Made by a program: the position numbers and the translations under genes
Source of the DNA: an uncultured Chitinophagaceae bacterium
GTDB taxonomy: Bacteria; Bacteroidota; Bacteroidia; Chitinophagales; LD1
Length of the DNA: 64,000 nucleotides
Direction of reading: 5' to 3'
Assembly (NCBI GenBank): GCA_964398475.1
Contig: CAYNMP010000003.1
Span: forward strand, 137,269-201,268
The notes under the pieces: model-generated
What the model was told of the DNA's origin: nothing
The model's database searches: none
The model's input: the letters and a program-made list of their open reading frames with translations, nothing else
Part shown: positions 11,987-50,745 of the stretch, piece by piece
Layout: each line of letters begins with the position of its first letter
How positions within the stretch are numbered: position 1 is the first letter of the stretch

Positions 11987-12023
11987 AAACCCAACCAACA
12001 ATAATTAGACAAATAAATGTGCA

Positions 12024-13811
<1,788 letters not shown>

Positions 13812-33204: not shown

Positions 33205-33225
33205 GATTTTATTTGGTTTTAAAAT

Positions 33226-34014
33226 TTATAATTTAAAGAAATCGCCCCATAAACGCTGCCCTCCATCAATATAAACAGTTTCACCCGTAATATAGTTCGC
33301 ATACGGACTCGCTAAAAATACCGTTAAGTTCGCCACCTCCTCTGAAGTGCCCATTCTGCGCATCGGAATTGCCTTTTCTACCCCCTCCAAAAATTCGGGC
33401 TGATAGTTTTCTAAGCCACTGGAGGCAATAATCCCCGGAGCAATGGCATTGATTTGAACATTGTATTTACTCCATTCTACCGCCAATGTTTTCGTAAGAT
33501 TATCTACCCCGGCACGCGCTGCACCGGTATGCACCATAGCCGGAAAACCGCGAAACACATTCGCAATAATATTCACTATGCGACCCGACTGATTCGGAAT
33601 AAAAAATTGCTTAGCCATGGTTTGTGTCATATACCATGTACCGTTCAAATTGTTATTGATAACAGCATTCCAGCCTTTGAACGAAATGTCTTCCGCTAAA
33701 GAAGGAAACTGCCCACCGGCATTATTCACTAAAATATCGAGTGTACCTTCTGTGTCTTTGATATTCTTTGCTAATGCTTCTACTTGTTCCGTATCCCGAA
33801 TATCGCAGACTTGATAACGTACTTTCCCGAAAGAATCCTCGGTGCGCAACGCATTGAATTTTTCGATAGCTGCAATCAAACGTTCTTCTTTTCGCGAAGT
33901 GATAATTACATTAGCACCCAACGACAATAATTGCTGGGTAATCGCAAAACCAATACCACTGCCCCCTCCGGTAACAATGGCTACTTTATCTTTAAATGTA
34001 TTAGGCAAAAACAT
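33226..34014 (-). CDS. SDR-family reductase, PECR/DECR-like (enoyl- or dienoyl-CoA reductase type)
   Basis: 262 aa. Cofactor motif VTGGGSGIG. The segment RGFPAMVHTGAARAGVDNLTKTLAVEW...INAIAPG resembles peroxisomal trans-2-enoyl-CoA reductase and 2,4-dienoyl-CoA reductase rather than classical YxxxK dehydrogenases. Confidence 0.7.
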   Translation of the reverse strand: MFLPNTFKDKVAIVTGGGSGIGFAITQQLLSLGANVIITSRKEERLIAAIEKFNALRTEDSFGKVRYQVCDIRDTEQVEALAKNIKDTEGTLDILVNNAGGQFPSLAEDISFKGWNAVINNNLNGTWYMTQTMAKQFFIPNQSGRIVNIIANVFRGFPAMVHTGAARAGVDNLTKTLAVEWSKYNVQINAIAPGIIASSGLENYQPEFLEGVEKAIPMRRMGTSEEVANLTVFLASPYANYITGETVYIDGGQRLWGDFFKL

Positions 34015-34042
34015 ACTTGCTGAATTTAGTTTTGACTAGAAA

Positions 34043-34900
34043 TTATCTTAACGGAATATTCAACATCGCACGTGTCTCTTCAATAGTGGCTACTTCGCGA
34101 CCAATCATGCGTACCATTTTCGCAGCCGCTTCAACTAATTCGCCATTGCTTTTTGCCATTTCGCCCTCCGGCAAGTAGAAGTTATCTTCTAATCCCACAC
34201 GAATGTTTCCATCGATCGTAATTGCCGCAGCAATAGCTTGCCATTGTTTTCGTCCGATGCCAATCACCTGCCAATGCGAACCTTCAGGAACTGATGCCGC
34301 TTGATGCAATAAGTTTTTCGTTGAAATAGGAATACCTCCCAAAACGCCCATCACGAAACTAAACACATAGGGCTTTTGCAACAATCCCATATCAATTAAC
34401 GGCATGGCATTATTGATGTGCCCATTATCGAACACTTCCATTTCCGGCACTGTACCTGCTTCTTTCATTTTCTCTAAATAGAATTGAATGTCTTTGAACG
34501 AATTTTGAAACACAAAATCGTGATAGAATTCTTTCGTCTTTGGGGAATAAATACCATAGTTCATCGAACCCATATTCAACGCAGCCATATCCGGTTTCAA
34601 TGCAGTGATGTGGTGAATACGCTCTTCGCGTGAAAGCCCTATGGCGCCTGTACTGTAGTTAATGATGGCAGTCGGACAAAGTTTTCTTACCTCCTCGCCT
34701 ATTCTTCTGTAGGTTTCAATATCATATGCCGGTGCGCCATCATCCTGACGAGCATGAATATGCAACACACTTGCTCCGGCATCAACAGCACGTTTGCCTT
34801 CTAAGGCAATTTCTTCGGGTGTGTAAGGAATATACGGACATTGTTCTCGTCTTGCTAAAACGCCTGTAAGCGCTGCGGTGATTACAATTTTCTTTGCCAT
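34043..34900 (-). CDS. Beta-keto acid cleavage enzyme family protein (BKACE / DUF849, 3-keto-5-aminohexanoate cleavage enzyme-like)
   Basis: 285 aa. N-terminus KIVITAALTG. Zn ligand motif VLHIHAR (HxH). Later VGLEDN. Length and order match the Kce family. Confidence 0.8.
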   Translation of the reverse strand: MAKKIVITAALTGVLARREQCPYIPYTPEEIALEGKRAVDAGASVLHIHARQDDGAPAYDIETYRRIGEEVRKLCPTAIINYSTGAIGLSREERIHHITALKPDMAALNMGSMNYGIYSPKTKEFYHDFVFQNSFKDIQFYLEKMKEAGTVPEMEVFDNGHINNAMPLIDMGLLQKPYVFSFVMGVLGGIPISTKNLLHQAASVPEGSHWQVIGIGRKQWQAIAAAITIDGNIRVGLEDNFYLPEGEMAKSNGELVEAAAKMVRMIGREVATIEETRAMLNIPLR

Positions 34901-34988
34901 TTTTCGGGTTGTATTTGTTGTTGGTTAATTGTTTTGCGTTTTATAAGCTATTGCCAAGTTATAAATAGTTTGAAAATTCAAAATGTAT

Positions 34989-35813
34989 TTATTTTCCCTT
35001 CCACACCGGTTTGCGTTTTTCAGCGAAAGCAGTAATGCCCTCGGCAGCATCTTCGGTTTGTACCGCCTTACCCAGCATGCTTTTCAAGAAGAGCTGACGA
35101 TCATTCTCCGGCACCGTTTTCAATGCATCGAAAGCCTCTAAACCCAATCGAATAGCCGATGGGGAATACTCCATAATTTCTTCTGCCAATGCTTGTACTT
35201 TGCTGTCGAGTTCTTCTGCTAATACTACTTCCGATACCAAACCCAATCGTAATGCCTCCTGCGCATCAGCAGATTTCGCTCGCATACAAAAATCGAGCAC
35301 CGCCCGCGATGGCATAATGTTCAACATACTCTGCATCACTTGGAAAGGATATAATCCGCGTTTCACTTCCGGCAGACTAAATGTGACATTAGGAGTAGCG
35401 ATCACATGCGTACAACCACACACAATCAAAAAGCCACCCGCCAACACAGGCGCATGTACTTTAGCAATACACGGTTTATGCAATCCCGAAAACACATCTG
35501 CCAACACCACCTCACCAGTCGGTTCAGGAATGGTAGAATTCGTTTCACTGCCACTCGCCAAGAAGGCCTTCAAATCGGCACCCGCACAAAAAATATCACC
35601 ATTGGCTTGAATCACCACCACCCACACTTCGTGGTTGAAATGCGCGTAATGTAAGGCATAGGCAATCTCGCGGAATAACACCGGATTCATCGCATTTTTC
35701 TTCTCCGGTCGATTCAGTGTTATCGTCAACACATGTCCGTTTTGCTCCACCAACAAATGCGCAAAGGTTTGCTGTTCGAGGGCTAAAGCCTGTTCTTTAG
35801 TATACAACTTCAT
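34989..35813 (-). CDS. Crotonase-fold enoyl-CoA hydratase/isomerase family protein
   Basis: 274 aa. Motifs ITLNRPEKKNAM and FCAGADLK. In a by-eye alignment the first catalytic Glu of hydratases is replaced (LAGGFLIVCGC versus GGGxELA). The second Glu is present (LPEVKRGLYP). Confidence 0.75.
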   Translation of the reverse strand: MKLYTKEQALALEQQTFAHLLVEQNGHVLTITLNRPEKKNAMNPVLFREIAYALHYAHFNHEVWVVVIQANGDIFCAGADLKAFLASGSETNSTIPEPTGEVVLADVFSGLHKPCIAKVHAPVLAGGFLIVCGCTHVIATPNVTFSLPEVKRGLYPFQVMQSMLNIMPSRAVLDFCMRAKSADAQEALRLGLVSEVVLAEELDSKVQALAEEIMEYSPSAIRLGLEAFDALKTVPENDRQLFLKSMLGKAVQTEDAAEGITAFAEKRKPVWKGK

Positions 35814-35827
35814 CTTCGATATTTTTC

Positions 35828-37792
35828 TTATTTCATTTTAATCATCACCGTGCCGGCCTCTACAAAGGTTTTTTCCTGCACGAAAACTTCTTCTACTTCG
35901 CCATCGCTATGCGCTTCAATGGTGGTTTCCATTTTCATGGAATTCATCACCAACAAGGCTTTCCCCGATTCAATTTTATCGCCCGCTTTCACCAATACCT
36001 TCACAATTTCGCCCGGCATTGGGGCAATGTAATCGCCTTCTGCCACAGCACTTCCGGGCTCGGTGAAACGCGGTTTTTCCGAAAACTTCAACGTTCCCAC
36101 ACCCTGTTGTTGCACAAACACTTCTCCGTTTTTCGTAGCCATAGCAAAAGCTTTACGATGATTGTTTATCGTAGCCACTACTCCATGTGCATCGGCACTA
36201 TTGAGTTCCACCGCAAAACAGTTTTCACCCACCACCACATCAAAGCAACCATCGCCTTTGTGACGATATTCCACTTTTACTTCAGCGCCATTCCATTGCA
36301 AAATGTAGTGCTGCGATTGATAATAAATATTGCGCCATCCATTCAAAGTGGCACTCACCGGCTCGGTAGATTTTCTACTTTGCCAATCATATAAGAAAGC
36401 CGCAATGGCCATTTCAGCCACATCGGTAGCGCTTACTTGTTTTTGATACGCACTAAAATCGCGCTCAATTAATTTGGTATCGAAGCTGCCATCCACATAT
36501 TCCGGATGGTTCAACAATGCACCCAAGAAATCTTTGTTAGTCGTAATTCCCAATATGGTATAGTGTTGCAAAGCATAATTCATTTTCTGAATCGCCTCTG
36601 TTCGAGTGCTGCCATAAGCAATCACCTTCGCCAACATACTGTCGTAAAACACATCTACTTTCGAACCGGTTTTCACACCACTGTCGTAGCGTAAACCTTT
36701 CAATGCCGGTTCTTTGTACAACAAAATTTCACCTGTGGCCGGAAAGAAATTATTCTCCGCATCTTCCGCACAAATACGGCATTCTATAGCATGACCGGTT
36801 GTTGTTACATCTCCAATATTCAAGGGCAAACCTTGCGCTACTTCTAATTGCAGACGAACCAAATCCAATCCTGTTACTTCTTCTGTAACCGGATGCTCCA
36901 CTTGCAAACGTGTATTCACTTCCAAAAAGTAAAACGAAGCATCAGCCGGGGAATACAAAAACTCCACCGTTCCCGCATTGGTGTATTGCACCGCTCGCGC
37001 AGCCGCCACAGCCGCATCGCCCATTTGTTGGCGAGTTGCAGCGCTGATAGATGGCGATGGTGATTCTTCAATCACTTTCTGATATCGTCTTTGCAACGAA
37101 CACTCGCGCTCAAACAAATGCACATAGTTGCCATGCGTATCGCCAAAAATCTGGAACTCGATGTGCTTTGCTTTCGGGAAATATTTCTCCATCAACAACA
37201 CTCCACTGCCAAAGCCCTTCTCGGCTTCACGGGTTGCCGTATTGAAAGCGGCTTCCAATTCTGCTTCGCTATTTACTATACGCATACCCTTACCACCACC
37301 ACCGGCACTGGCTTTCAGCAAAACCGGATAACCAATCTTAGCCGCTTCTTTTTGAAAGGTTTCAAAATTTTGATCGCTGCCATTATAACCCGGCACCACC
37401 GGTACACCGGCTTTTTGCATCAATTCTTTCGCGCCAATTTTCGGACCTAATTGTTGTATAGCCGCAGCCGAAGGACCCACAAACAGGATACCCTCATCTG
37501 CACAACGCTGCGCAAACGATGCATTCTCCGATAAAAACCCATACCCCGGATGAATCGCATTAGCACCCGTTTGCTTTGCCGCAGCAATAATTTTATCCTG
37601 ATCCAAATAACTCTCGGCCGGATGCGATCCTCCAATACAAATCGCCTCATCTGCCACAGTTACAAACAACGCATCCCGATCCGCTTGCGAATACACCGCC
37701 ACCGTGCTAATACCCATCGTTCGTGCCGTTCGCATCACCCGAATCGCAATCTCCCCCCTATTCGCAATCAATAACTTTGTTATCTTTTTCAT
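35828..37792 (-). CDS. Biotin-dependent acyl-CoA carboxylase alpha subunit (biotin carboxylase + BCCP; methylcrotonyl/geranyl-CoA carboxylase type)
   Basis: Canonical start MKKITKLLIANRGEIA at ATG 37792; the track start 37804 is TTG. ATP-grasp loop GGGGKGMRIV. C-terminal biotinylation motif NSMKME. Confidence 0.85.
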   Translation of the reverse strand: MKKITKLLIANRGEIAIRVMRTARTMGISTVAVYSQADRDALFVTVADEAICIGGSHPAESYLDQDKIIAAAKQTGANAIHPGYGFLSENASFAQRCADEGILFVGPSAAAIQQLGPKIGAKELMQKAGVPVVPGYNGSDQNFETFQKEAAKIGYPVLLKASAGGGGKGMRIVNSEAELEAAFNTATREAEKGFGSGVLLMEKYFPKAKHIEFQIFGDTHGNYVHLFERECSLQRRYQKVIEESPSPSISAATRQQMGDAAVAAARAVQYTNAGTVEFLYSPADASFYFLEVNTRLQVEHPVTEEVTGLDLVRLQLEVAQGLPLNIGDVTTTGHAIECRICAEDAENNFFPATGEILLYKEPALKGLRYDSGVKTGSKVDVFYDSMLAKVIAYGSTRTEAIQKMNYALQHYTILGITTNKDFLGALLNHPEYVDGSFDTKLIERDFSAYQKQVSATDVAEMAIAAFLYDWQSRKSTEPVSATLNGWRNIYYQSQHYILQWNGAEVKVEYRHKGDGCFDVVVGENCFAVELNSADAHGVVATINNHRKAFAMATKNGEVFVQQQGVGTLKFSEKPRFTEPGSAVAEGDYIAPMPGEIVKVLVKAGDKIESGKALLVMNSMKMETTIEAHSDGEVEEVFVQEKTFVEAGTVMIKMK

Positions 37793-37804
37793 ATCCAAAA
37801 TCAA

Positions 37805-37991
37805 TTTTCAATTCCCAAATTCTTAATCCTTAAACCCTCCATCATCAAATTCCCACTCAATTGCTAAATCATTTCATTCCTAAATTCACACATTAGCATT
37901 TTATCACATTCTCCTCATCATCAAATTCCTTCCCCCATTGTTAAATCCTTTCATTGCTACATTAGCACATTAACGCATTAGCACATTATTT
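37805..37991 (-). repeat. Tandemly duplicated 76-77-bp intergenic repeat, C-depleted on the gene-sense strand
   Basis: Fills the whole spacer between the two carboxylase genes. The unit at about 37837-37910 matches the unit at about 37911-37987. catcatcaaattcc is exact at 37840-37853 and 37916-37929. The longest aligned block shows 40/51 identity. Only 7 G in 187 nt on the + strand. Confidence 0.8.
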
Positions 37992-39587
37992 CTACATCCT
38001 AAACACCCCATACCCCTCAGCGCCTTTCACCTCCGTGTTATGAATCACCTCCATGCAGAACTTCAAGTAATTGCGCGTTTCCCGCGGATCAATTACACCA
38101 TCATCCCACAACTGACCACTTGCATACCAGGCATTACTTTGCTTATCGGCTTCCATCACCATAAACTTAGCCACTTGCGCGCCTTGCTCCTCATCGTATG
38201 CAATGCCCGATTTCTCAGCCGCTTGTCGGCCAATAATTTGCATCACCCCCGCCAACTGATCAGGTCCCATTACCGCAATTTTCGAATTCGGATAGCTGAA
38301 CAAAAAGCGCGGTTTATACGCCCTCCCGCACATCGCGTAATTGCCGGCACCGTAACTCGCACCGGTAATAATAGTAATAGCCGGCACCGTAGAATTACTC
38401 ACCGCATTAATCAACTTCGCACCGTTTTTAATAATGCCCTCTTCTTCATATTTGCGACCCACCATAAAGCCCGTAATGTTTTGCAAAAACAACAACGGAA
38501 TATCTTTTTGATTACACAACTGAATAAACTGCGCCCCTTTGTTGGCAGCCTCCGAAAACAACACTCCGTTGTTCGCTAAAATACCAATCGAATAGCCATT
38601 CACTTTCGCAAAGCCTGTAATTAAGGTACTTCCGTACAACGGTTTAAACTCCGAAAACTCCGACCCATCTACAAAGCGCGCTATCAGCTCGCGTTGGTCG
38701 AACGGAATTTTAATATCAGCCGAAACAATGCCTAAAATTTCTTCAGCCGCATACTTCGGTTCTTCAATCTTTTCTTTGGCGTAATTCGCATTGCCCGGAA
38801 ATAAATTCGACATAATCTCGCGCGCCAATCGTATGCCATCTTCTTGGTCTTCCGCCAAATAATCCGACACGCCCGACACCGCACTGTGCATTTTCGCACC
38901 GCCCAAACTCTCCTCGTCTGTTACCTCGTTGGTGGCCATTTTCACCAAAGGCGGACCGGCCAAAAACACCTTCGCCTCGTCTTTCACCATAATGGTGTAA
39001 TCGCTCATGCCCGGAATGTAAGCCCCACCGGCCGTACTGTTGCCAAACACAATCGAAATGGTAGGGAACCGCGCCTTACTGCGCTGAATAATATCGCGAA
39101 AATTTGCGCCACCGTAATTAAAAATTTTCGCCTGATCCGGCAAATTCGCACCTGCACTTTCCACCATCACAATGGTTGGCAAACCGTTCTCCATCGCAAT
39201 TTCGCCCATGCGCAAGCCCTTCTGCAACGTAGCATAATCAATCGCTCCGCCCTTTATAGTGCCCACGTTCGAATTAATCATACACAGCGTGCCGCTCACA
39301 AAACCAATACCGCACACAATAGTACCGCCAGTGCCAAAGCCATCCATGCCCCAGCCGGCAAACGGACATAATTCCATAAAAGGCGAATCGCGGTCGAGCA
39401 GCAACTCAATGCGCTCGCGCGCCAGCAACTTCCCCGCAGCCTTCGTGCGTTTCAGGTATTTATCCTCGCCCTGAAACAAAGCCTCCTTCACCTTCCCGTC
39501 CAACTCCAAAATTTTCTCTTGCATCAACGCGTAGTTGCGTTTGTAGCTCTCCGAATTCGCGTTTACCTTCGATCGAAATACCGACAT
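37992..39587 (-). CDS. Acyl-CoA carboxylase beta (carboxyltransferase) subunit, methylcrotonyl-CoA carboxylase type
   Basis: 531 aa. Carboxyltransferase architecture with GKLLARERIELLLD..SPFMEL, VGTIKGGA and GNSTAGGAYIPGMSD, co-linear with MCC beta subunits. Confidence 0.85.
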   Translation of the reverse strand: MSVFRSKVNANSESYKRNYALMQEKILELDGKVKEALFQGEDKYLKRTKAAGKLLARERIELLLDRDSPFMELCPFAGWGMDGFGTGGTIVCGIGFVSGTLCMINSNVGTIKGGAIDYATLQKGLRMGEIAMENGLPTIVMVESAGANLPDQAKIFNYGGANFRDIIQRSKARFPTISIVFGNSTAGGAYIPGMSDYTIMVKDEAKVFLAGPPLVKMATNEVTDEESLGGAKMHSAVSGVSDYLAEDQEDGIRLAREIMSNLFPGNANYAKEKIEEPKYAAEEILGIVSADIKIPFDQRELIARFVDGSEFSEFKPLYGSTLITGFAKVNGYSIGILANNGVLFSEAANKGAQFIQLCNQKDIPLLFLQNITGFMVGRKYEEEGIIKNGAKLINAVSNSTVPAITIITGASYGAGNYAMCGRAYKPRFLFSYPNSKIAVMGPDQLAGVMQIIGRQAAEKSGIAYDEEQGAQVAKFMVMEADKQSNAWYASGQLWDDGVIDPRETRNYLKFCMEVIHNTEVKGAEGYGVFRM

Positions 39588-40045: not shown

Positions 40046-40456
40046 CTATTTTTGGAGTAGGAATTTACGAATCAAAAATGTTTTTTCAGAATAAATTCGC
40101 ATGTAATAAAAACCCGGTGAAAGCGAGTGTATATCAAAGGTATAATCATGCTTAGAAGGATCGAAATCTATGGCCTTATGCAAAAATTCAGTACCCTCCT
40201 CATTCACAATCGAAATTTCAAAATGTTCGGGTGTTTTATGACTAAGACCAAGCATTAACAAGTGGTGAGGCACATCTACTTTAGCCGAAATTGATTCCGA
40301 TTTAAATAGCTTCGAATGCTTAATGAGCGAATCTTGTATACTCTCTAATCGTTTTAATGAAACAGCTTTTTTAGCAGCAATCTCATGCAAATACGTTTCT
40401 TGCGAAAAGCCTAATGCGCTCCACAAACACAATACAAAAAGTGCAACCGTTTTCAT
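40046..40456 (-). CDS. Mini-protein: signal peptide + short region + T9SS C-terminal-domain-like segment
   Basis: 136 aa. Signal peptide MKTVALFVLCLWSALGFSQ. C-terminal part FEISIVNEEGTEFLHKAIDF...LSPGFYYMRIYSEKTFLIRKFLLQK resembles a T9SS type-A sorting domain. Confidence 0.5.
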   Translation of the reverse strand: MKTVALFVLCLWSALGFSQETYLHEIAAKKAVSLKRLESIQDSLIKHSKLFKSESISAKVDVPHHLLMLGLSHKTPEHFEISIVNEEGTEFLHKAIDFDPSKHDYTFDIHSLSPGFYYMRIYSEKTFLIRKFLLQK

Positions 40457-40609: not shown

Positions 40610-41428
40610 TTAGCTCTCCTTTATGTGTTCTACCCATTCAAAATAATTCGTTGTGCGCTTATGTTCTGCTCCGGCACAAACACTCTCTAAATCGGCATCG
40701 CAAATCACCCTACACGTCAATTCAGTATCCTTATTTATTGTATTGGCTGCTTTACGAGATAGCGTAGCCAAAGTAACCCCTACCGCCAAATCTGCAGTAA
40801 ATGAACCGCTCAGCGTCTTCAGTTGCCGTAATGTTTCTTCATCGCAGCCTCCAACATAAGCCAGTGCTATGCCTACTCCTCGCCATAAATCCTGTTTTCG
40901 TTCTTCAGAAAATGGCGTTATTACGTTAGTCAAGGTTTCAGGTTCTGCTTTAGCGGTGTACCACATCGAACGCCCTAAGCCTTGGTCGTACCCCCTGTGA
41001 AAGTTGCCGTTCAGCCATTCCGGTGTTTTCATTTCCTTCACAGCTATACGTTGCTTAAAGGTGCCTTCACAATAACCTACTCCATCTAATACACGCGGTA
41101 CTTGTTGTAGTTCAACAACCACTTCCACTTGCTCAATAGCAATCTTGCGTTTTGCTATCGCCCAGCCCAAGCCAATATGAATTTGTGTACTATGCTCCGG
41201 AGCCTGTTGCAAAAAGGCTTGCCAGTGCGGTAATGCGAAAGCATTCGCATTAAAATCAAGAAGCGCACGCTCCATGGCAGACGCTTCATACGCTATCGAA
41301 ATAAATGTTTTATCGTTTTGCTCCAATAATGCTATTAAAGTCGCGTCATCCGTTGTTTCGCTGGCGGTTATAGCCGATGCCTGAAACAACTGCTGAATAA
41401 GCGCCATATTCGCAACCGCCTTTTGCAT
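40610..41428 (-). CDS. DUF1702-like protein (unknown function)
   Basis: 272 aa. Segments IAYEASAMERALLD, IHIGLGWAIAKR, LDGVGYCEG, YDQGLGRSMWY and DLWRGVGIALAYVGG match my recollection of the DUF1702 pattern. The start shares one base with the halogenase stop (TAATG, 41426-41430). Confidence 0.5.
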   Translation of the reverse strand: MQKAVANMALIQQLFQASAITASETTDDATLIALLEQNDKTFISIAYEASAMERALLDFNANAFALPHWQAFLQQAPEHSTQIHIGLGWAIAKRKIAIEQVEVVVELQQVPRVLDGVGYCEGTFKQRIAVKEMKTPEWLNGNFHRGYDQGLGRSMWYTAKAEPETLTNVITPFSEERKQDLWRGVGIALAYVGGCDEETLRQLKTLSGSFTADLAVGVTLATLSRKAANTINKDTELTCRVICDADLESVCAGAEHKRTTNYFEWVEHIKES

Positions 41429-43113
41429 TAGGCCATTTCTTTCACTTCATAAAACCACAGCAAACTCACATCATCCACTACATTTTGAGCAGGTGTTACC
41501 GCACCAGTGGGTATGATATTTGGATTTACACTCTCCAAATCAAATGTGTATGGGTTGATTGCCATATCTACCGGAGTGTCTTTCGCTTGCGAACTCACTA
41601 ACCTGAAAATGCAAGTAGCCATTTGTTCCAATATTCCCATATTTTCGTTCAATTGGACTTCTAACAATTGGTCGGTTTCATGTACTTTTTCCAAACCTAA
41701 TTGGAATGCACGCATAAAGCGAATGTCAAACGGGTCGATGTATCTATTCTCAAAAACCTCTGTCTGATAGGGTTTCCAAGCTACAAACATATTTTGCATA
41801 CGCATGTTCAGCGTAGCCAATTTATCGCCCAATCCATTTTCAGTTCCAAATAAGCGCTTCAATAATTTCAAATTCACAAAGCCATTGTTGGTAAACATCA
41901 ACGAGTGAATCGACCAATACACCGCCCAATCCCAGAAGATTTTAATCACCATAATCTGCGAATTCTCCAACAACTGATATTTGTTGTGATAAATCGGCAC
42001 CCAATTCTCAACCTGACGTAGAAACGCCTGTTCATAAACCTTTGCACGTACCGAAATATCTTCGCCTTGCACATCACGTAAAATTAAATCAGATAACCAT
42101 GTATTGGCTAAGGCAATAAAATCGCTTCCCGGTGAATACAACGGATCAAGGAATGCGCCCGATTCACCGGTTAATCCCCAACGTTCTTCAGCACTGTACA
42201 TGCGGGTGGTGTTGTGCGCAAAATGTTTTAATTGCATGAAGTCGAGTACGTTCGGAGTTTCCGGTTCTAGTTTGCTGTACACCTGTGGTTCATTCACTTT
42301 CAACCACTCCATTGCTTTTTCATAAGTGTTGTAGCTGGTAAGCGGATGAATATCCTGATCGGCTACAATACCAATACTCGTGCAGCCTGTACCTAAAGGA
42401 ATAATCCAAACCCAGTAGCCTTTATCCATAAAGTGAACGGTGCTCAAATAACGTAACTTTGGCTCAAGTTTGCTTTTCCATACTTCGTTATCTGTCCACG
42501 TATCAACATCCACAACGCTTTTCACTCGCCACCACACCGAGTTGATGTTATGGTCTAACTCTTTCTGAAACCCTAATTTTCGCTTTATAAGCGATGCTCT
42601 AGAAGCGGCATCTACCACCCATTTGCCGGAAATAGTATATTCCTCTCCATTCAATTTATACGTAACTGTATTTCCTTCTTTCGTTAAATTGAAATCCTTT
42701 ACAATAGCACCACTGATAAACTTTACGCCTAAAGCTTGTACATGTTTTATCATGTAATTTTCAAAAGTTCCTCTATCGATTTGGTGACTTGGCACAACTA
42801 ATTTTCTACGTGGACCTAATTCCACACGTGTAGTAATATCATTTTTGTTGTTCGATTTGAAAAAGGCACGCAGTCCGTGTTTGGGCAATTCATGTGTTTC
42901 CAAATACTCTTTCATGCCCAACACATTTCTAAAGTAATGGCTTGCCAACTCTACGGTTGACTCTCCCACTTTATGTGCTGCCATTGGCGCATCGCCTTCG
43001 CGTTTTTCCAATATCAGAATGGATATATCTGGGTTCGAACGTTTGAGTTGAATGGATAAGGTGAGCGCAGCAAGACCGCCCCCCAAAACGATAACATCAT
43101 ATTGTTTTTCCAT
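41428..43113 (-). CDS. Flavin-dependent halogenase
   Basis: 561 aa. FAD-binding YDVIVLGGGLAALTL. HKVGES segment. The halogenase-diagnostic WxWxIP motif is present (GYWVWIIPLG). Confidence 0.7.
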   Translation of the reverse strand: MEKQYDVIVLGGGLAALTLSIQLKRSNPDISILILEKREGDAPMAAHKVGESTVELASHYFRNVLGMKEYLETHELPKHGLRAFFKSNNKNDITTRVELGPRRKLVVPSHQIDRGTFENYMIKHVQALGVKFISGAIVKDFNLTKEGNTVTYKLNGEEYTISGKWVVDAASRASLIKRKLGFQKELDHNINSVWWRVKSVVDVDTWTDNEVWKSKLEPKLRYLSTVHFMDKGYWVWIIPLGTGCTSIGIVADQDIHPLTSYNTYEKAMEWLKVNEPQVYSKLEPETPNVLDFMQLKHFAHNTTRMYSAEERWGLTGESGAFLDPLYSPGSDFIALANTWLSDLILRDVQGEDISVRAKVYEQAFLRQVENWVPIYHNKYQLLENSQIMVIKIFWDWAVYWSIHSLMFTNNGFVNLKLLKRLFGTENGLGDKLATLNMRMQNMFVAWKPYQTEVFENRYIDPFDIRFMRAFQLGLEKVHETDQLLEVQLNENMGILEQMATCIFRLVSSQAKDTPVDMAINPYTFDLESVNPNIIPTGAVTPAQNVVDDVSLLWFYEVKEMA

Positions 43114-43243
43114 AAGGTGAATTTAGTAGTATAAAAGTAGGTTAAATTCTGATTTTGTATATAAAAAATAGTGGCTGATTGTTGTCATGAAACAACACTA
43201 TAACTGAATTGTTCACCACTCGATAAAAAAGAGGAATTGCTTT

Positions 43244-44323
43244 TTAAGCCTGCTGCAATAAAATCAAACTGTAGCGTTTTCCCCAGAAATGATTAAGCAT
43301 TAACACGTTTTTGATAGACGAAAGTGGAGCCGTTTGGTTTACTTTAGTAATCTCCGGAATTGCTTGGTGACGAAGGATTTTGCAACCCAACCACATGCCA
43401 AACGATGCAGCAGTGCAATAATCGCCACATAGGTGTTTGAAGGCTAGAAATTGCTTTCCGTCAAATACATTATTTAAAGCAATATTGCTCATGGTATCAA
43501 GTTGAGTATCACCACCGGCACCGTTTATAACAACATCAATAGCATTGGCATCGAGATTGTTTTCGGTTAGAAGGGTGTGAATTTGTGCTTGTAATTCGCC
43601 CGCATCTTCCGGACGGTAAATCGTTTTCACGCCCAATAATTTGGCATAAGCATTTGACGTTTTTTCTGTTCCTAAAGTAAAGAACGCTGCGCCTTCGCCT
43701 TCAATGGTGCCTTGTCCGTCTGATTGAAACAACGTTAAATTATTGATATTTTTGCGTTTGTGTAAGCCATCGAATTGTTTAATGGCATGCTGTTCTTTGT
43801 TAGTTTCATCGAAAGCTCCCAATAATATTCGTTTTGAAGGAGTATCGGTCATTTGCATCAACGCATCTTGCAATGCATTTTCAAACGAAAAACCACGATG
43901 CGCATAGGTAGTGTTATAGTTATTACACTTCATGTTCATGGCAATAGCTCCCGAAATAGTGTTGTAGGTGCTTTGCATGAAGAATGTAGGCGTAAGTTGC
44001 TTTTCTCCGTTGTTTAAAATTTCCCAAAGAAAATTGCTGGTATCCCCAATCGCACCATATCCTGAAGCCGTGATAATGGCATCGGGCATGTCGAGTTGAG
44101 CATCTTGCGCACAAATTTTGGCAGCCGATAAGCCAATGCGCAGCAAGCGACTCATTCTGCGCAAAGCAACAGGATGAATATAGTTTTTGAATTCCGGCAA
44201 AACACAAGGCAATACATTGTCGTTGTATTCGCTGATTTCGTTGAGGAATTCGCTGTTATCGAATGTTTTCTGCGGGGAAATATTTCCCAAACCCTGTACA
44301 TAAAAAGTGGTTGTGTTTTCCAT
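43244..44323 (-). CDS. Beta-ketoacyl synthase paralogue lacking the catalytic triad (chain-length-factor-like)
   Basis: Start trimmed to ATG 44323 (MENTTTFYVQGLG...), 10 nt after the KS stop. Aligned by eye to the adjacent KS: the Cys position reads STYNTISG, the first His region reads INGAGGD, and the second reads CGDYCTAA. Confidence 0.7.
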   Translation of the reverse strand: MENTTTFYVQGLGNISPQKTFDNSEFLNEISEYNDNVLPCVLPEFKNYIHPVALRRMSRLLRIGLSAAKICAQDAQLDMPDAIITASGYGAIGDTSNFLWEILNNGEKQLTPTFFMQSTYNTISGAIAMNMKCNNYNTTYAHRGFSFENALQDALMQMTDTPSKRILLGAFDETNKEQHAIKQFDGLHKRKNINNLTLFQSDGQGTIEGEGAAFFTLGTEKTSNAYAKLLGVKTIYRPEDAGELQAQIHTLLTENNLDANAIDVVINGAGGDTQLDTMSNIALNNVFDGKQFLAFKHLCGDYCTAASFGMWLGCKILRHQAIPEITKVNQTAPLSSIKNVLMLNHFWGKRYSLILLQQA

Positions 44324-44333: not shown

Positions 44334-45542
44334 TCAGACTTTAGAAAATAATAGAGAGGTGTTACTGCCGCCAAAACCGAAAGAATTCGACAGCACATGA
44401 TTCACTTCCACGTTTTGCATTAACTCCTTCAATGGTGAAATACTAATTTCCGGCATTTGGTTTTCGAAATTCAAATTCGGAAACAATACATTATTTTGAA
44501 TGCTTAAAATCGAGAATACAGCTTCTACACTACCCGCTGCGGCTAAAGTGTGGCCGGTATAAGGTTTGGTAGAACTGAAAAAAGGCACGTGCTCTTGAAA
44601 CAATTTTTGAATAGCTAAGGCTTCTGATAAGTCGTTGTTTTCAGTACCCGTTCCATGGCAATTGATATAGTCTACTGCTTTCAGTTCAACGCCTGCCATG
44701 GCTATAGCGCGCGACATTGAAAGCAATGCTCCATCGCCATCCGGTGAAGATGCTGTTTGATGAAAAGCATCATTTGAATTGCTGTAACCGGTTAATTCAA
44801 CAAGTGGTTTTTTATTGAATTTGGCAACCATTTCTTCCGATTCCAAAACAACGAAAGCCGCGCCTTCACCTAGGTTAACGCCACCGCGCTGGGCATCAAA
44901 AGGATGCATCGCACGTTTATCTAAAATCATCAACGAATTGAATCCATTGAGGGTGAACTTTGAAAGCACATCACTTCCCCCACAAACTACTCGGTCTAGA
45001 ACCCCGTGTTTAATGAGCTCTGCGCCTAATATTATAGCATTAGATGCAGAAGAACAGGCCGTACTTGTAGTGCTCACATAATCTTTAAACCCAAATAAAT
45101 CAGCTACTCGCTCGGTGTGTTCACCGGCATCAGTAACGTGAGCGTAGTTTCTGAAATCTCCGTCTTTAGAGAGGTCGGTTAAGTCGGTTAATATATTTTC
45201 GAATTCACGCATACCGCCAACGGTGGTAGATGATATCAATCCGGTACGAGCTTCTTTTATGTTTTCAATATTGGCCGATGCTAATGCCTCCCGACAAGCA
45301 ATAAGGGCAATTAATGCTGTTCTTGTGAAGCCACTATTAGGTTGTACTCCTGCAATCGAACATAATTCTTCATCGGTCAGTTTTATTTCACCAACCGGAA
45401 TCGTTTCGCTGTGAATGGAGGGAAATAGTTCTAGTTTGCCAATGCCGGAACGCTTATGGAGCAATGCGTCCAGGTGTTCATTCGTGTTTTTACCAATGGA
45501 CGTAATTATCCCTGTTCCGGTAATAAACACTTTGCGGCTCAT
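44334..45542 (-). CDS. Beta-ketoacyl-ACP synthase (FabF/FabB-like KS)
   Basis: 402 aa. Active-site Cys in TTSTACSSASNAI. His motifs NCHGTGT and TGHTLAAAG. C-terminal SFGFGGSN. Confidence 0.85.
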   Translation of the reverse strand: MSRKVFITGTGIITSIGKNTNEHLDALLHKRSGIGKLELFPSIHSETIPVGEIKLTDEELCSIAGVQPNSGFTRTALIALIACREALASANIENIKEARTGLISSTTVGGMREFENILTDLTDLSKDGDFRNYAHVTDAGEHTERVADLFGFKDYVSTTSTACSSASNAIILGAELIKHGVLDRVVCGGSDVLSKFTLNGFNSLMILDKRAMHPFDAQRGGVNLGEGAAFVVLESEEMVAKFNKKPLVELTGYSNSNDAFHQTASSPDGDGALLSMSRAIAMAGVELKAVDYINCHGTGTENNDLSEALAIQKLFQEHVPFFSSTKPYTGHTLAAAGSVEAVFSILSIQNNVLFPNLNFENQMPEISISPLKELMQNVEVNHVLSNSFGFGGSNTSLLFSKV

Positions 45543-45805
45543 GCAGTTTTCGAAGCTTGTTGTTCACGGATGAATTCAGCCATGGTTGTCACGGTTTGAA
45601 ATGCCTGACGTCCCACTTTCGGATCTTCAATTTTAATGCCGTAGTTTTTCTCTAACATCACAATTAACTCCAACGAGTCTATAGAGTCCAATCCAAAATC
45701 AGGTCCAAACAAAGGGGTGTTTTCATCAAACTCCTCAGGCGTCATGCCTTCTAGGTTCAAACGACTAATGATTTCTTTCTTTAAGTTGTATATCAATTCA
45801 TCCAT
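45539..45805 (-). CDS. Acyl carrier protein
   Basis: 88 aa. Phosphopantetheine attachment motif GLDSIDSLELIVMLE. The stop overlaps the KS start (ATGA). Confidence 0.85.
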   Translation of the reverse strand: MDELIYNLKKEIISRLNLEGMTPEEFDENTPLFGPDFGLDSIDSLELIVMLEKNYGIKIEDPKVGRQAFQTVTTMAEFIREQQASKTA

Positions 45806-45870: not shown

Positions 45871-47154
45871 TTATCCTTTGTTCATCCGCGATTTGTAAAT
45901 CCAAAAACTCAAAACAAGTAACGCCACACCAAACAAAACCAAGCGGAAAATGTTCGGCAAAATAGCGGCAGTGTTTGCATTTCTCAAAAACAAATCGTTA
46001 CAAGCTTCTAAGCCCCAGCTCATTGGCGAAAAATGGCTAATGGCCTGTAAGGTTGGCGGCATTACGTATGTTGGAACCCATACGCCTCCGAGGGCTGCAA
46101 GCAATACCACTGAAACCGATCCGAATGCTAATGCCTGATGGTGCGTTTTAAAGAACACGGCAACTAATAATCCATAAGCTGTAGCCGCTATTCCTACGGC
46201 CATAGCGGTGAGAACAACACCTTCATAATTGGTTCCCAGTGAAAGACGTGCTAGCCCTAGTTTCGGCAGAAGGTAAATACCTATCGCCATCATTAATGCG
46301 AACTGCAACAAGCAAATCATGAAATAGAACAAATACTTTCCTGCAATCACCGGAAACGAAGAGCCGGAGATCAATCGCAAACGCAACATACTTCCCTCTT
46401 CGCGCTCTTTAATGAAATTACCGGCTAATGGAAACAAAATCAAAAACATGGCAAACATGGTCCATGCCGGTACGTTATGTTGCACCGAATTGGTGGTGGC
46501 GATTGCGGTTGAAGGCTGTTCGGTTTCTTTCACTACCAACGAATTGCTGAAATCAATTACCTGTTTTTTCTGTTCCGAACCCAATGCAGCCATTTGTGTT
46601 TTCAGGTTTTCGATAATCAGTTTCGATTGTGCATTGGCTGCAATTTTTTCAATGGCATTGCTAATGGCTAATTTGAAATTGACTTTTGTTACCGGATCAA
46701 ACACAAGCTCTATCGCTATTTCACGGTTGTCAACGGTATCTTTTACTTCATCGCCAAATCCAAAATTTGCCATCAGTTGCGCTACCGAATGTTTTACTTT
46801 CTTGTTTAAGGTCTTCGAAGCGTTTTGTGGTAGAATAATGGCTGCCTTGTATTTGCCGCTATGCACCCATTCGCTAGCTTGTACTTTAGTAATGGGCTGT
46901 CCGTTAACGCTGGTTACCAATTCCAAATTCTTGGCTTCTCGAAGTGAATGTTCAAATACTTCGCCCAACGAATCTTTATCGTTGTTTACATATAACACTT
47001 GAAATTTCAAATCTTGATAATCTCTGAACGGTGCATCTTGTACCAAAGCCATTACAGTTACCAAAATTAGCGGCATCAAAAAAATCATAGCTAAGCCTCC
47101 CATGTCGCGAAGCAACAACAGCAATTCTTTTCGTATGGTGGCTAATATTTTCAT
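45871..47154 (-). CDS. ABC-2-type transporter permease
   Basis: 427 aa. N-terminal TM helix, a large extracytoplasmic loop, then about five C-terminal TM helices. Lies 17 nt downstream of an ABC ATPase gene. Confidence 0.75.
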   Translation of the reverse strand: MKILATIRKELLLLLRDMGGLAMIFLMPLILVTVMALVQDAPFRDYQDLKFQVLYVNNDKDSLGEVFEHSLREAKNLELVTSVNGQPITKVQASEWVHSGKYKAAIILPQNASKTLNKKVKHSVAQLMANFGFGDEVKDTVDNREIAIELVFDPVTKVNFKLAISNAIEKIAANAQSKLIIENLKTQMAALGSEQKKQVIDFSNSLVVKETEQPSTAIATTNSVQHNVPAWTMFAMFLILFPLAGNFIKEREEGSMLRLRLISGSSFPVIAGKYLFYFMICLLQFALMMAIGIYLLPKLGLARLSLGTNYEGVVLTAMAVGIAATAYGLLVAVFFKTHHQALAFGSVSVVLLAALGGVWVPTYVMPPTLQAISHFSPMSWGLEACNDLFLRNANTAAILPNIFRLVLFGVALLVLSFWIYKSRMNKG

Positions 47155-47171: not shown

Positions 47172-47918
47172 TTAATCGCGCATGCTTTTTCCGGTTAAAT
47201 GCAGAAATAATTCTTCTATGTCTTTGCAATTCGTGTTTTGTTGCAAAAGCTCTTCACGTGTGCCTTCTGCGATTAATTTTCCTTCGTCCATAATACCAAA
47301 GCGAGTACATAATTTTTCGGCTTCTTCCATCAAGTGCGAAGAATACAAAATCGTCATGCCCTTATGGTTTAAGCCTTTCAGGATGTCGATGATTAAATTG
47401 CGCGAGTGTACATCTACGCCTGCCGTTGGTTCATCGATGATGAGTAACTTCGGTTCATGTAATAATGCCGCAATGAGGTTTAATCTTCTTTTCATTCCCC
47501 CTGAGAATGAAGCTACCTGTTCGTTTAATTTTGATGTGAGTCCGAATGCTTCTACATAATGCGCAATGGTTTCACGCAATTTTTTTCCGCGCAAACCATA
47601 CATGTTTCCAAAGTATGTCAAGTTTTCTGCAGCAGTAAGGGTTGGAAAAAGGGCGATTTCTTGAGGCGCAACACCAATTAAAGAACGAATGGTAGCGCTT
47701 TTGCTTTTTGCATCGAAACCCAAAACGTTGATTTCTCCTGAGCTGTAGGGAGTAAGTCCGCAAATCATCATCACTGAAGTAGATTTTCCGGCACCATTAG
47801 GTCCGAGCAAACCATAGATTTCACCTTCGTTTACTTGCAAAGAAAGTCCTTGTACCGCGGGCTGTTTAGCTCCGGTGTAGGTTTTTACAACTTTGTTCAA
47901 TGCAATGGCTATGCTCAT
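47172..47918 (-). CDS. ABC transporter ATP-binding protein
   Basis: Walker A GLLGPNGAGKST, signature FSGGMKRRL, Walker B LLIIDEPTAGVD. ATG 47918 overlaps the upstream stop (ATGA). Confidence 0.9.
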   Translation of the reverse strand: MSIAIALNKVVKTYTGAKQPAVQGLSLQVNEGEIYGLLGPNGAGKSTSVMMICGLTPYSSGEINVLGFDAKSKSATIRSLIGVAPQEIALFPTLTAAENLTYFGNMYGLRGKKLRETIAHYVEAFGLTSKLNEQVASFSGGMKRRLNLIAALLHEPKLLIIDEPTAGVDVHSRNLIIDILKGLNHKGMTILYSSHLMEEAEKLCTRFGIMDEGKLIAEGTREELLQQNTNCKDIEELFLHLTGKSMRD

Positions 47919-48925
47919 AATCTGGCTTTCGCCCAAAGGAATAGTTTATCAAAAAGTACTTGTTCTTTTTTGCCGATTTCATAAAGCATATCAGCGAGTT
48001 GGTCGAAGGTAACCGTATCCGATTTTCTGTTCTTACAAACGCGACTAGCTTCGTAGGCAAAAGCTCGCCATAGATCGCCAATAGCCGTCAATTCTTTCGA
48101 CATATTGAACAGTTCTTCGTCTTTTAATATAACACTTGCTTTATCCAAGAAAGCCGCATAAATAAAGCGAAATCCGGCTCCACCGGTGCCAATTTCTTCT
48201 TGCATGCGCACTACATTGCCTAACCATAAAACCGATTTTCTCGGACCTAGTTTCTTTGGCCAGTTGCGCATTCGATTCGCTAAATATTTTATGCCATTCG
48301 CACCCAAAATAGGCATAGGTGTTTTCGCCATAAAGAAGGCCACATGTTTAATGGCTTTAATCATAGCTTTATTTAAATCATACGATTTTGGGAACACCAC
48401 CGGATAGTATAATTTTCCTTTTGGTTCTGGTATGCCTTTCGCGAAACGCGCACGCTGTAAGTCTTCCGGCAAAATTTCAGTAACACCTTCCAATGTGGGG
48501 TCGCTCACTAAATACTTGCCATTCTCTTTACCGTATACAATAATGTTATGCGCATTAAAATGAAATCGATAGGCATCGGGTAAGTACGTTAAATAGAAAA
48601 CAGAAGTAAGCATACCCACCGGAATTCCTTGTTCTAGCAGGGCATCCAGCGCTTCCATTCCTTTTTGTTCGTTGCTAAAGGTTTGGCTTTTTACTTTAAT
48701 GCCTAGACTATTTGCGAAGCGTTTGAAAATATAGCTAGGCATAGTTCGGAACGATGTAACCGGAATGCCGCCCATTTTCAAAAAAGGGAAATAAGAAAAA
48801 AATAATCCTGCACCAATCCCAAATACCATAGGTTCATCAAATTCCATTCCGTGGAAACGCAATAGGTTTGACACTACTCCGTTCTCACAATGTGCTGACT
48901 GTCTATGTTCAAAGGGAATTCTCAT
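47915..48925 (-). CDS. BtrH N-terminal-domain-like protein (papain/C39-like fold, possible ACP-dependent acyltransferase)
   Basis: 336 aa. N-terminus FEHRQSAHCENGVVSNLLRFHGMEFDEPMVFGIGAGLFFSYF matches my recollection of the BtrH_N pattern, including the conserved Cys. Confidence 0.6.
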   Translation of the reverse strand: MRIPFEHRQSAHCENGVVSNLLRFHGMEFDEPMVFGIGAGLFFSYFPFLKMGGIPVTSFRTMPSYIFKRFANSLGIKVKSQTFSNEQKGMEALDALLEQGIPVGMLTSVFYLTYLPDAYRFHFNAHNIIVYGKENGKYLVSDPTLEGVTEILPEDLQRARFAKGIPEPKGKLYYPVVFPKSYDLNKAMIKAIKHVAFFMAKTPMPILGANGIKYLANRMRNWPKKLGPRKSVLWLGNVVRMQEEIGTGGAGFRFIYAAFLDKASVILKDEELFNMSKELTAIGDLWRAFAYEASRVCKNRKSDTVTFDQLADMLYEIGKKEQVLFDKLFLWAKARL

Positions 48926-49365
48926 GCGTTATTATTTTCAGTAGCACCCGTTCTCGGATCTTTGAATTTGGTGATATCCATTAATTCCTCACGCGTGATG
49001 CGAAATGCAAAAGCGTATTTATCTAGTGTTTTTGAACTCAATCGGTTGAAGAAAAAAGGTTTGGTGTGTAGCCAAACAATAAAACTCAATGTGCCCACAT
49101 AACCTGCTATAATCTCGTAGGTCATGATGTTTTGTTCTTTGTAAAACAAAACCGGACTAGCATCGCCATTCAACACTTTTTCTCGTGCGTCTTCAATATT
49201 TTCGTGTACTACATCCCAAGCTTGGCGCATCACCACGGTTTCTGCCTCCCAGCCAATGCTGTTCAGCTTTTCGTAGTGCCCTTTTTCATCGGTGGCATAA
49301 TAGAGTTTGGCTAATTTTCCTTCGTTGAGGTTATCGGTGTCTTGCGGTACTTCTTCTTTTTTCAT
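48922..49365 (-). CDS. Hypothetical protein with one predicted TM helix
   Basis: 147-aa ORF. Its stop overlaps the start of the downstream BtrH-like gene (ATGA). Hydrophobic segment EIIAGYVGTLSFIVWL. No family recognised. Confidence 0.5.
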   Translation of the reverse strand: MKKEEVPQDTDNLNEGKLAKLYYATDEKGHYEKLNSIGWEAETVVMRQAWDVVHENIEDAREKVLNGDASPVLFYKEQNIMTYEIIAGYVGTLSFIVWLHTKPFFFNRLSSKTLDKYAFAFRITREELMDITKFKDPRTGATENNNA

Positions 49366-49411: not shown

Positions 49412-50551
49412 TTAGACTACAGTATAAAGAATATAAGCAAAATTGAATCGGGCACTTTCCGGTACCATCATCAAAATTTTATCTCCGGCTTTCAATCGCC
49501 CTGAGCCCATTAATTCTTCCAACATCACAAATGGTGCTGCAACGCCTATGTTTCCTACTTTTGATAGGTTAGTGAACCATTTTTCGGCAGGAATGGCTAA
49601 GCCAATTTCACGCAACTCTTCCTCAATTTTAGGAGCGAAGAAATACGAAGAAAGGTGAGGTAAGAAATAATTTACAGACGAAACATCGAAATTGCGTTTC
49701 GCCACAATATCCTTCAACAATTTACCGCCAAACTTCACAATGTTATTGCCCAACAGGCGAGTATCTTGTTTGATAGCGAATACAGAATCGGAAGCCCAAC
49801 GATGTTGATCGATAGACGCCCAACCTGTGATGGTATGATCGGGATTTTGTAATGCTCCGGCAAACATACAGGTTGGCAATTCGTTGGCGTAAGAACGTTG
49901 GTCAATCCATTCGATTCTTAATGATAGTCCGTTTTTATTGGGTTCTGATTCCAATAATGCAGCCCCTGCGCCATCCGATAACATGAAACGCAAGAAATCT
50001 TTTTCAAAGGCCAATATCGGTTCAGTTTCTAAACGGTCGATTTTTTCGGCCTCTTCTTGGAAATATTTCGATACCATCCAGTGCGACATGCGTTCAGAGC
50101 CCACGCAAACAGCATTATCGGTGAAACCGCCTTGAATCGACATGAAGCTGTATTTCAACGATTGAATGATGTTGCAACAAGCTCCTGACGTAGCCACAAT
50201 CTCGGTTGGAGCGGCTTTTAGTTCGCCTTGTACCATTGAAGTGTGTGAAGGTAAAATCTGATCCGGTGAAGATGTTCCGCAAGCTAAAAGCTGAATATCT
50301 TCTGCTTTGAAACGCTCATCAGTAAGATTTAAAATGGCTTCTTTTGCCAATTGTGCATTAGTATGTGTTGAATTTCCTTGTCTATCGATAGCGTAGTAAC
50401 GCGTTTTGATTTGATTGCTGCGCAAAATAATTGACTTTGCACGCGATGCTTTCCCATTGATTTTACCCAATACATCCTCGATCTCTTCGTTGGCTATAGG
50501 CTCATTCGGAAGAAATTTAGCTAATCTGGTAATATATACACTTCGGCTCAT
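49412..50551 (-). CDS. FabH-type ketosynthase III, DarB-like
   Basis: 379 aa. Catalytic Cys in TSGACCNIIQS, His in YFLPHLSS, Asn in KVGNIGVAAP. The N-terminus SVYITRLAKFLPNEPIANEEIE and the C-terminus resemble the dialkylresorcinol-type KSIII (from memory). Confidence 0.75.
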   Translation of the reverse strand: MSRSVYITRLAKFLPNEPIANEEIEDVLGKINGKASRAKSIILRSNQIKTRYYAIDRQGNSTHTNAQLAKEAILNLTDERFKAEDIQLLACGTSSPDQILPSHTSMVQGELKAAPTEIVATSGACCNIIQSLKYSFMSIQGGFTDNAVCVGSERMSHWMVSKYFQEEAEKIDRLETEPILAFEKDFLRFMLSDGAGAALLESEPNKNGLSLRIEWIDQRSYANELPTCMFAGALQNPDHTITGWASIDQHRWASDSVFAIKQDTRLLGNNIVKFGGKLLKDIVAKRNFDVSSVNYFLPHLSSYFFAPKIEEELREIGLAIPAEKWFTNLSKVGNIGVAAPFVMLEELMGSGRLKAGDKILMMVPESARFNFAYILYTVV

Positions 50552-50745
50552 GTTTACTCTGTAGTTTTCAAAGGTGGTGCAAAGAAATAAAAAAATGTCA
50601 TAATAATTGCGTCTTAACTCCTCACACGCTCGCGGAAAGAAACAACCGATTTTATAAAATGTTCTGTTTCTGATAATTTAGCATTTATCGTGGAAATTAA
50701 TTCCGAACATTGTTTTGAAGTATAGTTCTATCTATTCGGAAAAAT

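Follow-up and report, generated by a model that had tools for sequence, protein, structure and literature searches.

Why should the gene of a predicted flavin-dependent halogenase share a base with the gene of a DUF1702 protein at the end of what appears to be a pigment operon? The question is raised by a 64,000-nucleotide (nt) stretch of DNA (contig CAYNMP010000003.1, positions 137,269 to 201,268; below, the window) from an uncultured Chitinophagales bacterium. On the minus strand, like all genes of the operon, lie the halogenase gene (41428–43113; 561 amino acids (aa), ATG start at 43111–43113) and, as the last gene, that of a 272-aa protein with an ATG start (40610–41428). The first-pass annotation, made from the sequence alone, had read the two as a functional pair. 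Our analysis suggests that they may form a mobile two-gene tailoring module of an operon of the dar (dialkylresorcinol) type. The best explanation, held with moderate confidence, is that the halogenase acts on a pigment precursor, while DUF1702 is a dispensable, physically associated accessory subunit which aids the engagement of a lipophilic substrate tethered to an acyl carrier protein (ACP).

The association of the two genes extends far beyond the window. The first-pass annotation had suggested a co-occurrence analysis; a scan seeded with DUF1702 that took one genome for each species found 80 loci, every one of them from Bacteroidota. Their open reading frames (ORFs) were searched with the window proteins, and 79 of the loci were evaluable. 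The halogenase gene lay directly upstream of DUF1702 on the same strand in 70 of the 79 loci, one to three genes away in five, and not within 10 kb in four. The adjacency is kept at a DUF1702 identity of only 35%–40% and across at least seven cluster architectures. The pair may follow the gene of the chain-length factor (CLF), as in the window, precede DarB, stand between DarB and DarG or diverge from DarB; elsewhere it follows an AMP-ligase, or the acyltransferase of a full flexirubin cluster with tyrosine ammonia-lyase (TAL), ketoreductase (KR), ketosynthase (KS) and ACP. It is also found ahead of a polyene module composed of FlxB-KR, dehydratase (DH), ACP, KS and CLF, including in the isolate Paraflavisolibacter caeni LB-8 (L048), among the loci found the one cultured strain with the pair, and it occurs alone, away from pigment genes, in loci L008, L039, L052, L079, and L170. 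DUF1702 proteins identical or 86%–87% identical to that of the window are encoded in the same operon on metagenome contigs and in metagenome-assembled genomes of Chitinophagales.

At the junction in the window, base 41428 belongs to both the TAA stop of the halogenase and the ATG start of DUF1702, within the motif TAATG at 41426–41430 (minus strand; the plus strand reads CATTA). The shared base claimed earlier was thus confirmed on the sequence. Among 102 halogenase/DUF1702 junctions in related loci, 48 overlap, 27 of them by one base in a T[AG]ATG motif of the same type as in the window, and a further 26 are separated by 0–20 nt. Because 48 of 102 junctions overlap, the overlap in the window is more than a chance event. 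Moreover, three single-ORF halogenase–DUF1702 fusions, with the N-to-C order the same as that of the genes, were found in three separate 50%-identity clusters: an 842-aa protein in L074 (243–2771), an 848-aa protein, P0390, in L170 (8001–10547), and an 849-aa protein, P0464. Given that the genes are coupled and in places fused, always in one order, we infer that the products of the pair work together physically. The surroundings of P0390 hold no pigment genes within 8 kb, and the gene adjoins a divergent gene encoding a Peptidase_S8/FG-GAP protein.

The conserved adjacency, the overlapping junctions, and the fusions bear out the functional pair, but the halogenase is not always coupled to DUF1702. 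When 83 loci were sampled with the halogenase as seed, giving 72 evaluable orthologues, DUF1702 followed 33 of the 72 and was cleanly absent after the remaining 39, bar one N-terminal remnant; apart from this gene, the two sets of clusters have the same layout. A neighbour-joining tree built from the halogenase sequences requires DUF1702 to have been gained or lost at least 13 times, no halogenase alignment column tracks its presence (the best column difference is 0.49), and DUF1702 diverges faster than the halogenase. The presence in 33 of 72 clusters, the number of changes, the lack of a tracking column, and the faster divergence argue for an accessory, not an essential, protein. The search for decayed copies downstream of halogenases without DUF1702 yielded only the remnant in L167 (8672–8968, around 100 aa, after the halogenase), and L087 (9656–10557) carries DUF1702 split into two ORFs. 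In L016 (6491–9980), two tandem halogenase copies precede DUF1702. These three loci look like snapshots of module duplication and decay.

Several observations weigh against the accessory-subunit explanation. In L033, L042, L044, and L071 (around 8800–12260 in each), the gene order is trigger factor–DarB–DUF1702–DarG–DarH, a halogenase gene is missing from the surrounding 10 kb, and DUF1702 is there tied to resorcinol genes, not to a halogenase. In Flavobacteriales, one to three genes lie between halogenase and DUF1702. No flavin reductase gene is encoded near the pair. The pattern of invariant polar residues in DUF1702, described below, would suit a catalytic or ligand site better than a passive adaptor. 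Finally, a tblastn search with family representatives found no TAL, CoA/AMP ligase, FlxB-type KR, or DH in the 64-kb window; the sole match for these polyene-part families was an unrelated short-chain dehydrogenase/reductase (SDR) at 33259–33984. Elsewhere, loci place the pair beside TAL, FlxB-type KR, DH, ACP, KS, and CLF. Since these enzymes were not found in the window, the substrate there could be an aryl-polyene, a plain acyl chain, or a resorcinol.

The four loci in which DUF1702 stands between DarB and DarG without a halogenase, together with the half of the clusters in which the halogenase lacks DUF1702, would suit mere co-tailoring, in which DUF1702 performs an unrelated pigment step and is linked to halogenation neither physically nor by mechanism. 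This account leaves unexplained why fusions arose in three separate 50%-identity clusters, why the two genes stay adjacent in 70 of 79 loci when all other neighbours change, and why the pair also occurs by itself, away from pigment genes. We regard it as quite improbable.

The accessory-subunit explanation presupposes that the larger protein of the pair halogenates. The 561-aa enzyme matches the Pfam domains FAD_binding_3 and Trp_halogenase and carries the motif G11-G-G-L-A-A16 for binding flavin adenine dinucleotide (FAD), of which G11–G13 are invariant in 45 orthologues. Orthologues of the halogenase are 57%–64% identical. The WxWxIP motif reads W234-V-W-I-I-P239 and aligns with TWVWQIP of PltA; W234, W236, I238, and P239 are invariant among the same 45 orthologues, as is the DP..SPG block of F321-L-D-P-L-Y-S-P-G329. 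The invariant K78 (LPKHG) lines up with lysines of PltA, in FPKKF, and of Bmp2, in FPDKPG, that we take to be catalytic. In a PDB sequence search, PltA was the best match (E = 1.6e-21), followed by Mpy16, Bmp2, ChlB4, 3nix (a Cytophaga hutchinsonii protein), CtcP, CmlS, RadH, CndH, and PltM. All matches but one antifreeze-protein repeat were halogenase-type flavoproteins, and neither tryptophan halogenases nor monooxygenases occurred among the 15 matches at E <= 0.01. The AlphaFold model (predicted local distance difference test, pLDDT, 88.3) gave the same picture: Foldseek ranks 1–45 against the PDB were all flavin-dependent halogenases, among them CtcP, PltA, PltM, CmlS, Bmp2, ChlB4, Mpy16, RadH, and CndH. 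Judged by its motifs, sequence, and predicted fold, the enzyme is a genuine flavin-dependent halogenase.

Database names of the orthologues, such as 'FAD-dependent monooxygenase' or 'flavin-dependent dehydrogenase', and a score for Pfam FAD_binding_3 slightly above that for Trp_halogenase point in another direction, namely a flavin monooxygenase that, with DUF1702, oxidises the pigment. The invariant WxWxIP motif, the lysine aligned to those of PltA and Bmp2, and the best neighbours in sequence and structure, all of them halogenases, with monooxygenases appearing only from Foldseek rank 46 on, make this hardly credible. The grouping with non-halogenating monooxygenases, which the first-pass annotation had named as fatal to its view, was not found.

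The mode of substrate presentation is less uniform. By sequence the best matches are PltA, Mpy16, and Bmp2 (PDB 5dbj, 5buk, 5bva), which are carrier-protein-dependent and share with the window enzyme the FAD fold, the catalytic lysine, WxWxIP, and FxDPxxSxG; an ACP gene lies in the operon, three genes upstream of the halogenase. However, the identity to these enzymes is only around 20%, and they have no DUF1702-like partner. The window enzyme also differs from them in an extra helical C-terminal domain of around 180 aa, in which it is nearer to CtcP or PltM, and the best structural matches include these two free-substrate enzymes.

What, then, is the pathway? The first-pass annotation could assign the module to no described pathway, a view that has to be revised. 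The predicted operon (all minus strand) begins with DarB, a KAS-III-like dialkylresorcinol/cyclohexanedione-forming ketosynthase (49412–50551; Pfam ACP_syn_III_C), which scores 544.6 bits against the NCBIfam StlD/DarB family (cut-off 450) and 547.5, just below the cut-off of 550, against the narrower resorcinol_DarB. It is followed by a small, 147-aa protein of the DarG family (48922–49365; NCBIfam DarG_fam 134.6 bits, cut-off 70; flexirubin_DarG 151.4 bits, below its cut-off of 170) and by DarH, a BtrH-related acyltransferase (47915–48925; NCBIfam DarH_acyl 458 bits, cut-off 300; Pfam BtrH_N and DUF4872). Next come an ABC transporter ATPase (47172–47936; Pfam ABC_tran, E = 1.5e-33), an ABC-2 permease (45871–47154; Pfam ABC2_membrane_3, E = 6.9e-33), and the ACP with the motif GLDSIDS (45539–45805; Pfam PP-binding, E = 1.9e-9). 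A ketosynthase with the TACSS cysteine and two histidine motifs (44334–45542; Pfam ketoacyl-synt and Ketoacyl-synt_C; NCBIfam beta-ketoacyl-ACP synthase, 303.7 bits) and a CLF-like KS partner without the active-site cysteine (43244–44323; Pfam Ketoacyl-synt_2, E = 7.2e-11) complete the set ahead of the pair. Gene callers place the CLF start at 44323 (359 aa, the same call as in L001), although the ORF could reach 44398; its stop is at 43244–43246.

Since DarB, DarG, and DarH match their NCBIfam families and the backbone equals the published dar set, the operon is, on sequence grounds, a dar cluster of the flexirubin type. The clusters of Chitinophaga pinensis and Azoarcus sp. BH72 (PMC3949708, PMC3992019) share with it both the backbone, made of DarB, a small conserved protein, a BtrH-like protein, the ABC ATPase and permease, ACP, KS, and a KS-like partner, and its order. 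In Azoarcus the order is darB-darD-darE(BtrH-like)-darF-darI-darC-darJ-darK (PMC3949708, Table 1). In contrast, the published dar tables (PMC3949708, PMC3992019) list neither a halogenase nor DUF1702, both of which the window appends after the CLF. Dialkylresorcinols constitute the alcohol half of flexirubins, and known flexirubins vary in ring chlorination (PMC3992019). A halogenase beside an unusual type II KS/CLF pair is also known from the aryl-polyene clusters for xanthomonadin (PMC3691225) and arcuflavin (arcA in PMC3949708). In xanthomonadin clusters the halogenase gene flanks KS/CLF, and its presence varies with the bromination of the pigment (PMC3691225); more generally, some producers carry it and others do not, matching halogenated and non-halogenated pigments. 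Unlike the window, these clusters are proteobacterial and have no reported DUF1702 partner, and the likeness drawn here is one of gene context.

In 23 related loci, including L007, L009, L029, and L073, DarB is preceded, at the position of DarA, by a gene of a family termed here F2 (around 306 aa, 2928 homologues, no Pfam or NCBIfam match), which may be a DarA candidate. F2 was not found in the 64-kb window, where its place (50552–51651) is occupied by a divergent 302-aa ORF (50746–51651, plus strand) with a tail rich in Gly, Asn, Met, and Gln. As an inverted DarA this ORF was rejected: it has no similarity to F2 and no Pfam or NCBIfam match.

The smaller partner is the more puzzling of the two. 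The DUF1702 assignment withstood the profile search suggested in the first-pass annotation: the 272-aa protein matches PF08012 with E = 1.2e-43 and 149.7 bits (cut-off 25) over profile positions 47–290 of 319, in a family of 1223 representatives at 50% clustering. The accompanying view that DUF1702 has no assigned function stands as regards biochemistry, but the family is not an orphan: judging from sequence, DUF1702 is the family of the enediyne cassette protein E3/UnbL. Its relatives carry the JGI name 'enediyne biosynthesis protein E3', and a paper on Phytohabitans treats DUF1702 and E3 as one. Ever since the definition of the cassette, E3, E4, and E5 have been described as enediyne genes that are conserved but have no known function (PMC9992847, PMC10760148). 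On plasmid pSCL4 of S. clavuligerus the annotated order is DUF1702 protein, VCBS-repeat protein, UnbU, type I polyketide synthase (PKS), and thioesterase, and the E3 encoded there (WP_003957090.1) is 27% identical to the window protein over 266 aa, with YE(G/A), GxGW, DGxG(Y/F), QGxGRxxW, and LWxGxGxAxxYxGG in common. E48, D115, R153, W156, and W182 of the window protein are common to E3; E48, D115, and R153, along with Q149 and R225, are invariant or near-invariant polar residues across the DUF1702 family and shared with E3. Both proteins adjoin polyketide machinery building conjugated chains. However, enediyne E3 is around 320 aa long with an extra N-terminal segment and always accompanied by E4 (VCBS/FG-GAP), E5 (UnbU), the enediyne PKS (PKSE), and thioesterase, whereas the partner of the window protein is a flavin-dependent halogenase; E4, E5, an enediyne type I PKS, and the thioesterase were found neither in the window nor in any of more than 160 Bacteroidota loci. 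A 401-aa E3-like DUF1702 gene overlapping the start of the gene of an FG-GAP (E4-like) protein was noted in L169 (2461–4889), the contig edges of which carry IS66 and DDE transposases and a resolvase, and which may hold part of an enediyne cassette carried by a mobile element.

The AlphaFold model of the window DUF1702 (pLDDT 96.4; predicted template modelling score, pTM, 0.93) is all-alpha, with 15 helices, and the Gly-rich motifs fall in long helices. Foldseek against the PDB gave nothing better than E = 0.2 and a TM-score of 0.35, and PDB sequence and profile searches were empty, so the fold gives no functional lead. No nucleotide-binding or metal-cluster signature was found in the protein. 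DUF1702 was also considered as the flavin reductase of the halogenase, and rejected on account of the all-alpha model and the lack of a nucleotide-binding motif.

The near-invariance of E48, D115, and R153 (with Q149 and R225) and of aromatic residues across the Bacteroidota clade and the E3-like proteins raises the alternative that DUF1702 is an enzyme acting on the halogenated intermediate. An alkyne or an aromatised ring could arise, for example, if it eliminated hydrogen halide (HX) from an intermediate of the vinyl or alpha-halo kind. On this view the halogenation would be in part cryptic, with enediyne E3 performing the same chemistry on iodinated polyenes. The position of E3 in the cassette DUF1702–VCBS(E4)–UnbU(E5)–PKSE–thioesterase, the constant order with DUF1702 after the halogenase, in genes and fusions alike, and the missing F2 in the window are in keeping with it. 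Enediyne biosynthesis reportedly proceeds via a diiodotetrayne, to go by the title of Gui et al. 2024, and this compound is said to be the product of the E3/E4/E5/PKSE/thioesterase cassette; our literature searches on cryptic iodination and on iodide and tetraynes found nothing. The idea is weakened by the retention of F2 in most loci with the pair, and by DUF1702 having neither a recognisable catalytic fold or cofactor motif nor a solved relative. We know of no alkyne-bearing or cryptically halogenated flexirubin-type compounds, which also counts against it. The frequent loss of DUF1702 with the halogenase kept would be expected of an optional helper no less than of an extra step that is optional. 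On balance, such an enzyme seems distinctly unlikely.

One lineage of Bacteroidota has DUF1702 either fused to a methyltransferase or followed by one: L168 1995–3401 (P0035), L012 1967–3226, L011 11268–11903, L013 4695–5369, and L014 11265–11855. The best PDB matches of this enzyme are halide/thiol methyltransferases (8ajp, 3.4e-16; 3lcc, 5.6e-14; also 9h0g), with thiopurine methyltransferases at around 1e-4. Halide would thus be common to three contexts of DUF1702, the flavin-dependent halogenase, the halide/thiol-type methyltransferase, and the enediyne cassette, which is reportedly linked to iodinated intermediates. This suggests a halide handler which binds Cl-, Br-, or I- and feeds halogenating enzymes, and which would be relevant in halide-poor freshwater or soil. 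Conserved Arg, Gln, Trp, and Tyr agree with such a role, and dispensability fits a helper whose value depends on the environment. Against this, the invariant acidic residues E48 and D115 are unexpected in an anion site, and to our knowledge no halogenase needs a halide carrier. The methyltransferase link is limited to the single lineage, and the enzyme could methylate the pigment ring instead. The ring methyl of flexirubins derives from methionine (PMC3992019). A halide handler is therefore, in our opinion, improbable.

A wider proposal takes in both ideas: DUF1702/E3 would be a hitherto unrecognised, halogenation-coupled enzyme family acting on or with halogenated conjugated chains, either by HX elimination to a triple bond or by halide delivery. 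We consider it unlikely. If true, the Bacteroidota pair would be a minimal, soluble two-protein version of the enediyne E3/E4/E5 and iodide chemistry.

Under the preferred explanation, an optional accessory subunit, the halogenase would make hypohalous acid from FADH2, O2, and whichever halide is used, and Lys78 would steer it towards a carbon of the pigment precursor that is rich in electrons. The likeliest places for this carbon are an acyl or aryl-polyene chain tethered to the ACP and the resorcinol ring. DUF1702 would be translated in step with the halogenase by termination-reinitiation at TAATG; it would bind the halogenase and most likely help it to engage the lipophilic carrier-bound substrate.

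The cluster type and the presence of halogenases in it are already known, while the E3-family partner, the coupling, and the fusions appear to be undescribed: a full-text search on DUF1702 returned nothing on Bacteroidota or halogenases, and searches on flexirubin together with halogenases gave no description of the window enzyme or its partner. Genomic evidence from more than 100 loci of Bacteroidota, three of the cases being gene fusions, ties an E3 relative to a flavin-dependent halogenase. As both proteins are soluble and neither a giant PKS nor a membrane partner is involved, the pair offers a tractable system for E3-family function. It also leads to the prediction that halogenated lipids of the flexirubin or resorcinol type are made by many Chitinophagales, and the annotation 'FAD-dependent monooxygenase + DUF1702' can be replaced by a specific, testable role.

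Does the module carry its own upstream region? The 130-nt gap between CLF and halogenase (43114–43243, minus strand), pointed out in the first-pass annotation as a place that could hold an internal promoter, is real, and other loci with the same arrangement have 60–310 nt ahead of the halogenase. The gap of the window is conserved in its 3' half, which may serve in regulation or initiation: positions 43114–43180 correspond to 8250–8316 of L007, whose DUF1702 is only 67% identical, in the pattern TTTTTTAT..AATC..AATTTA..TTACTTTTA..TAAATT..TTATG. The 5' half contains an imperfect hairpin, TGTTGT-ttcatg-ACAACA. No sigma-70-like site was found in the gap, by a scan that does not cover Bacteroidota promoters. 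The Bacteroidetes -7 element has the consensus TAnnTTTG, and the only near match to it in the gap, found by eye, is TACTTTTA. The conserved 3' half and the gaps in the other loci fit a module carrying its own upstream region, although a promoter is not thereby proven.

Downstream of the pair, a 136-aa ORF (40046–40456, minus strand) shows weak similarity, below the Pfam cut-off, to a type IX secretion C-terminal sorting domain and is kept only in the closest relatives (L001–L006, L088, and L089). Further downstream on the same strand, a block at 32032–39587 encodes a carboxyltransferase, a biotin carboxylase with a BT_MCC_alpha domain, an enoyl-CoA hydratase, BKACE, an SDR, and an acyl-CoA dehydrogenase; it looks like unrelated catabolism, resembling degradation of the leucine/3-methylcrotonyl-CoA type.

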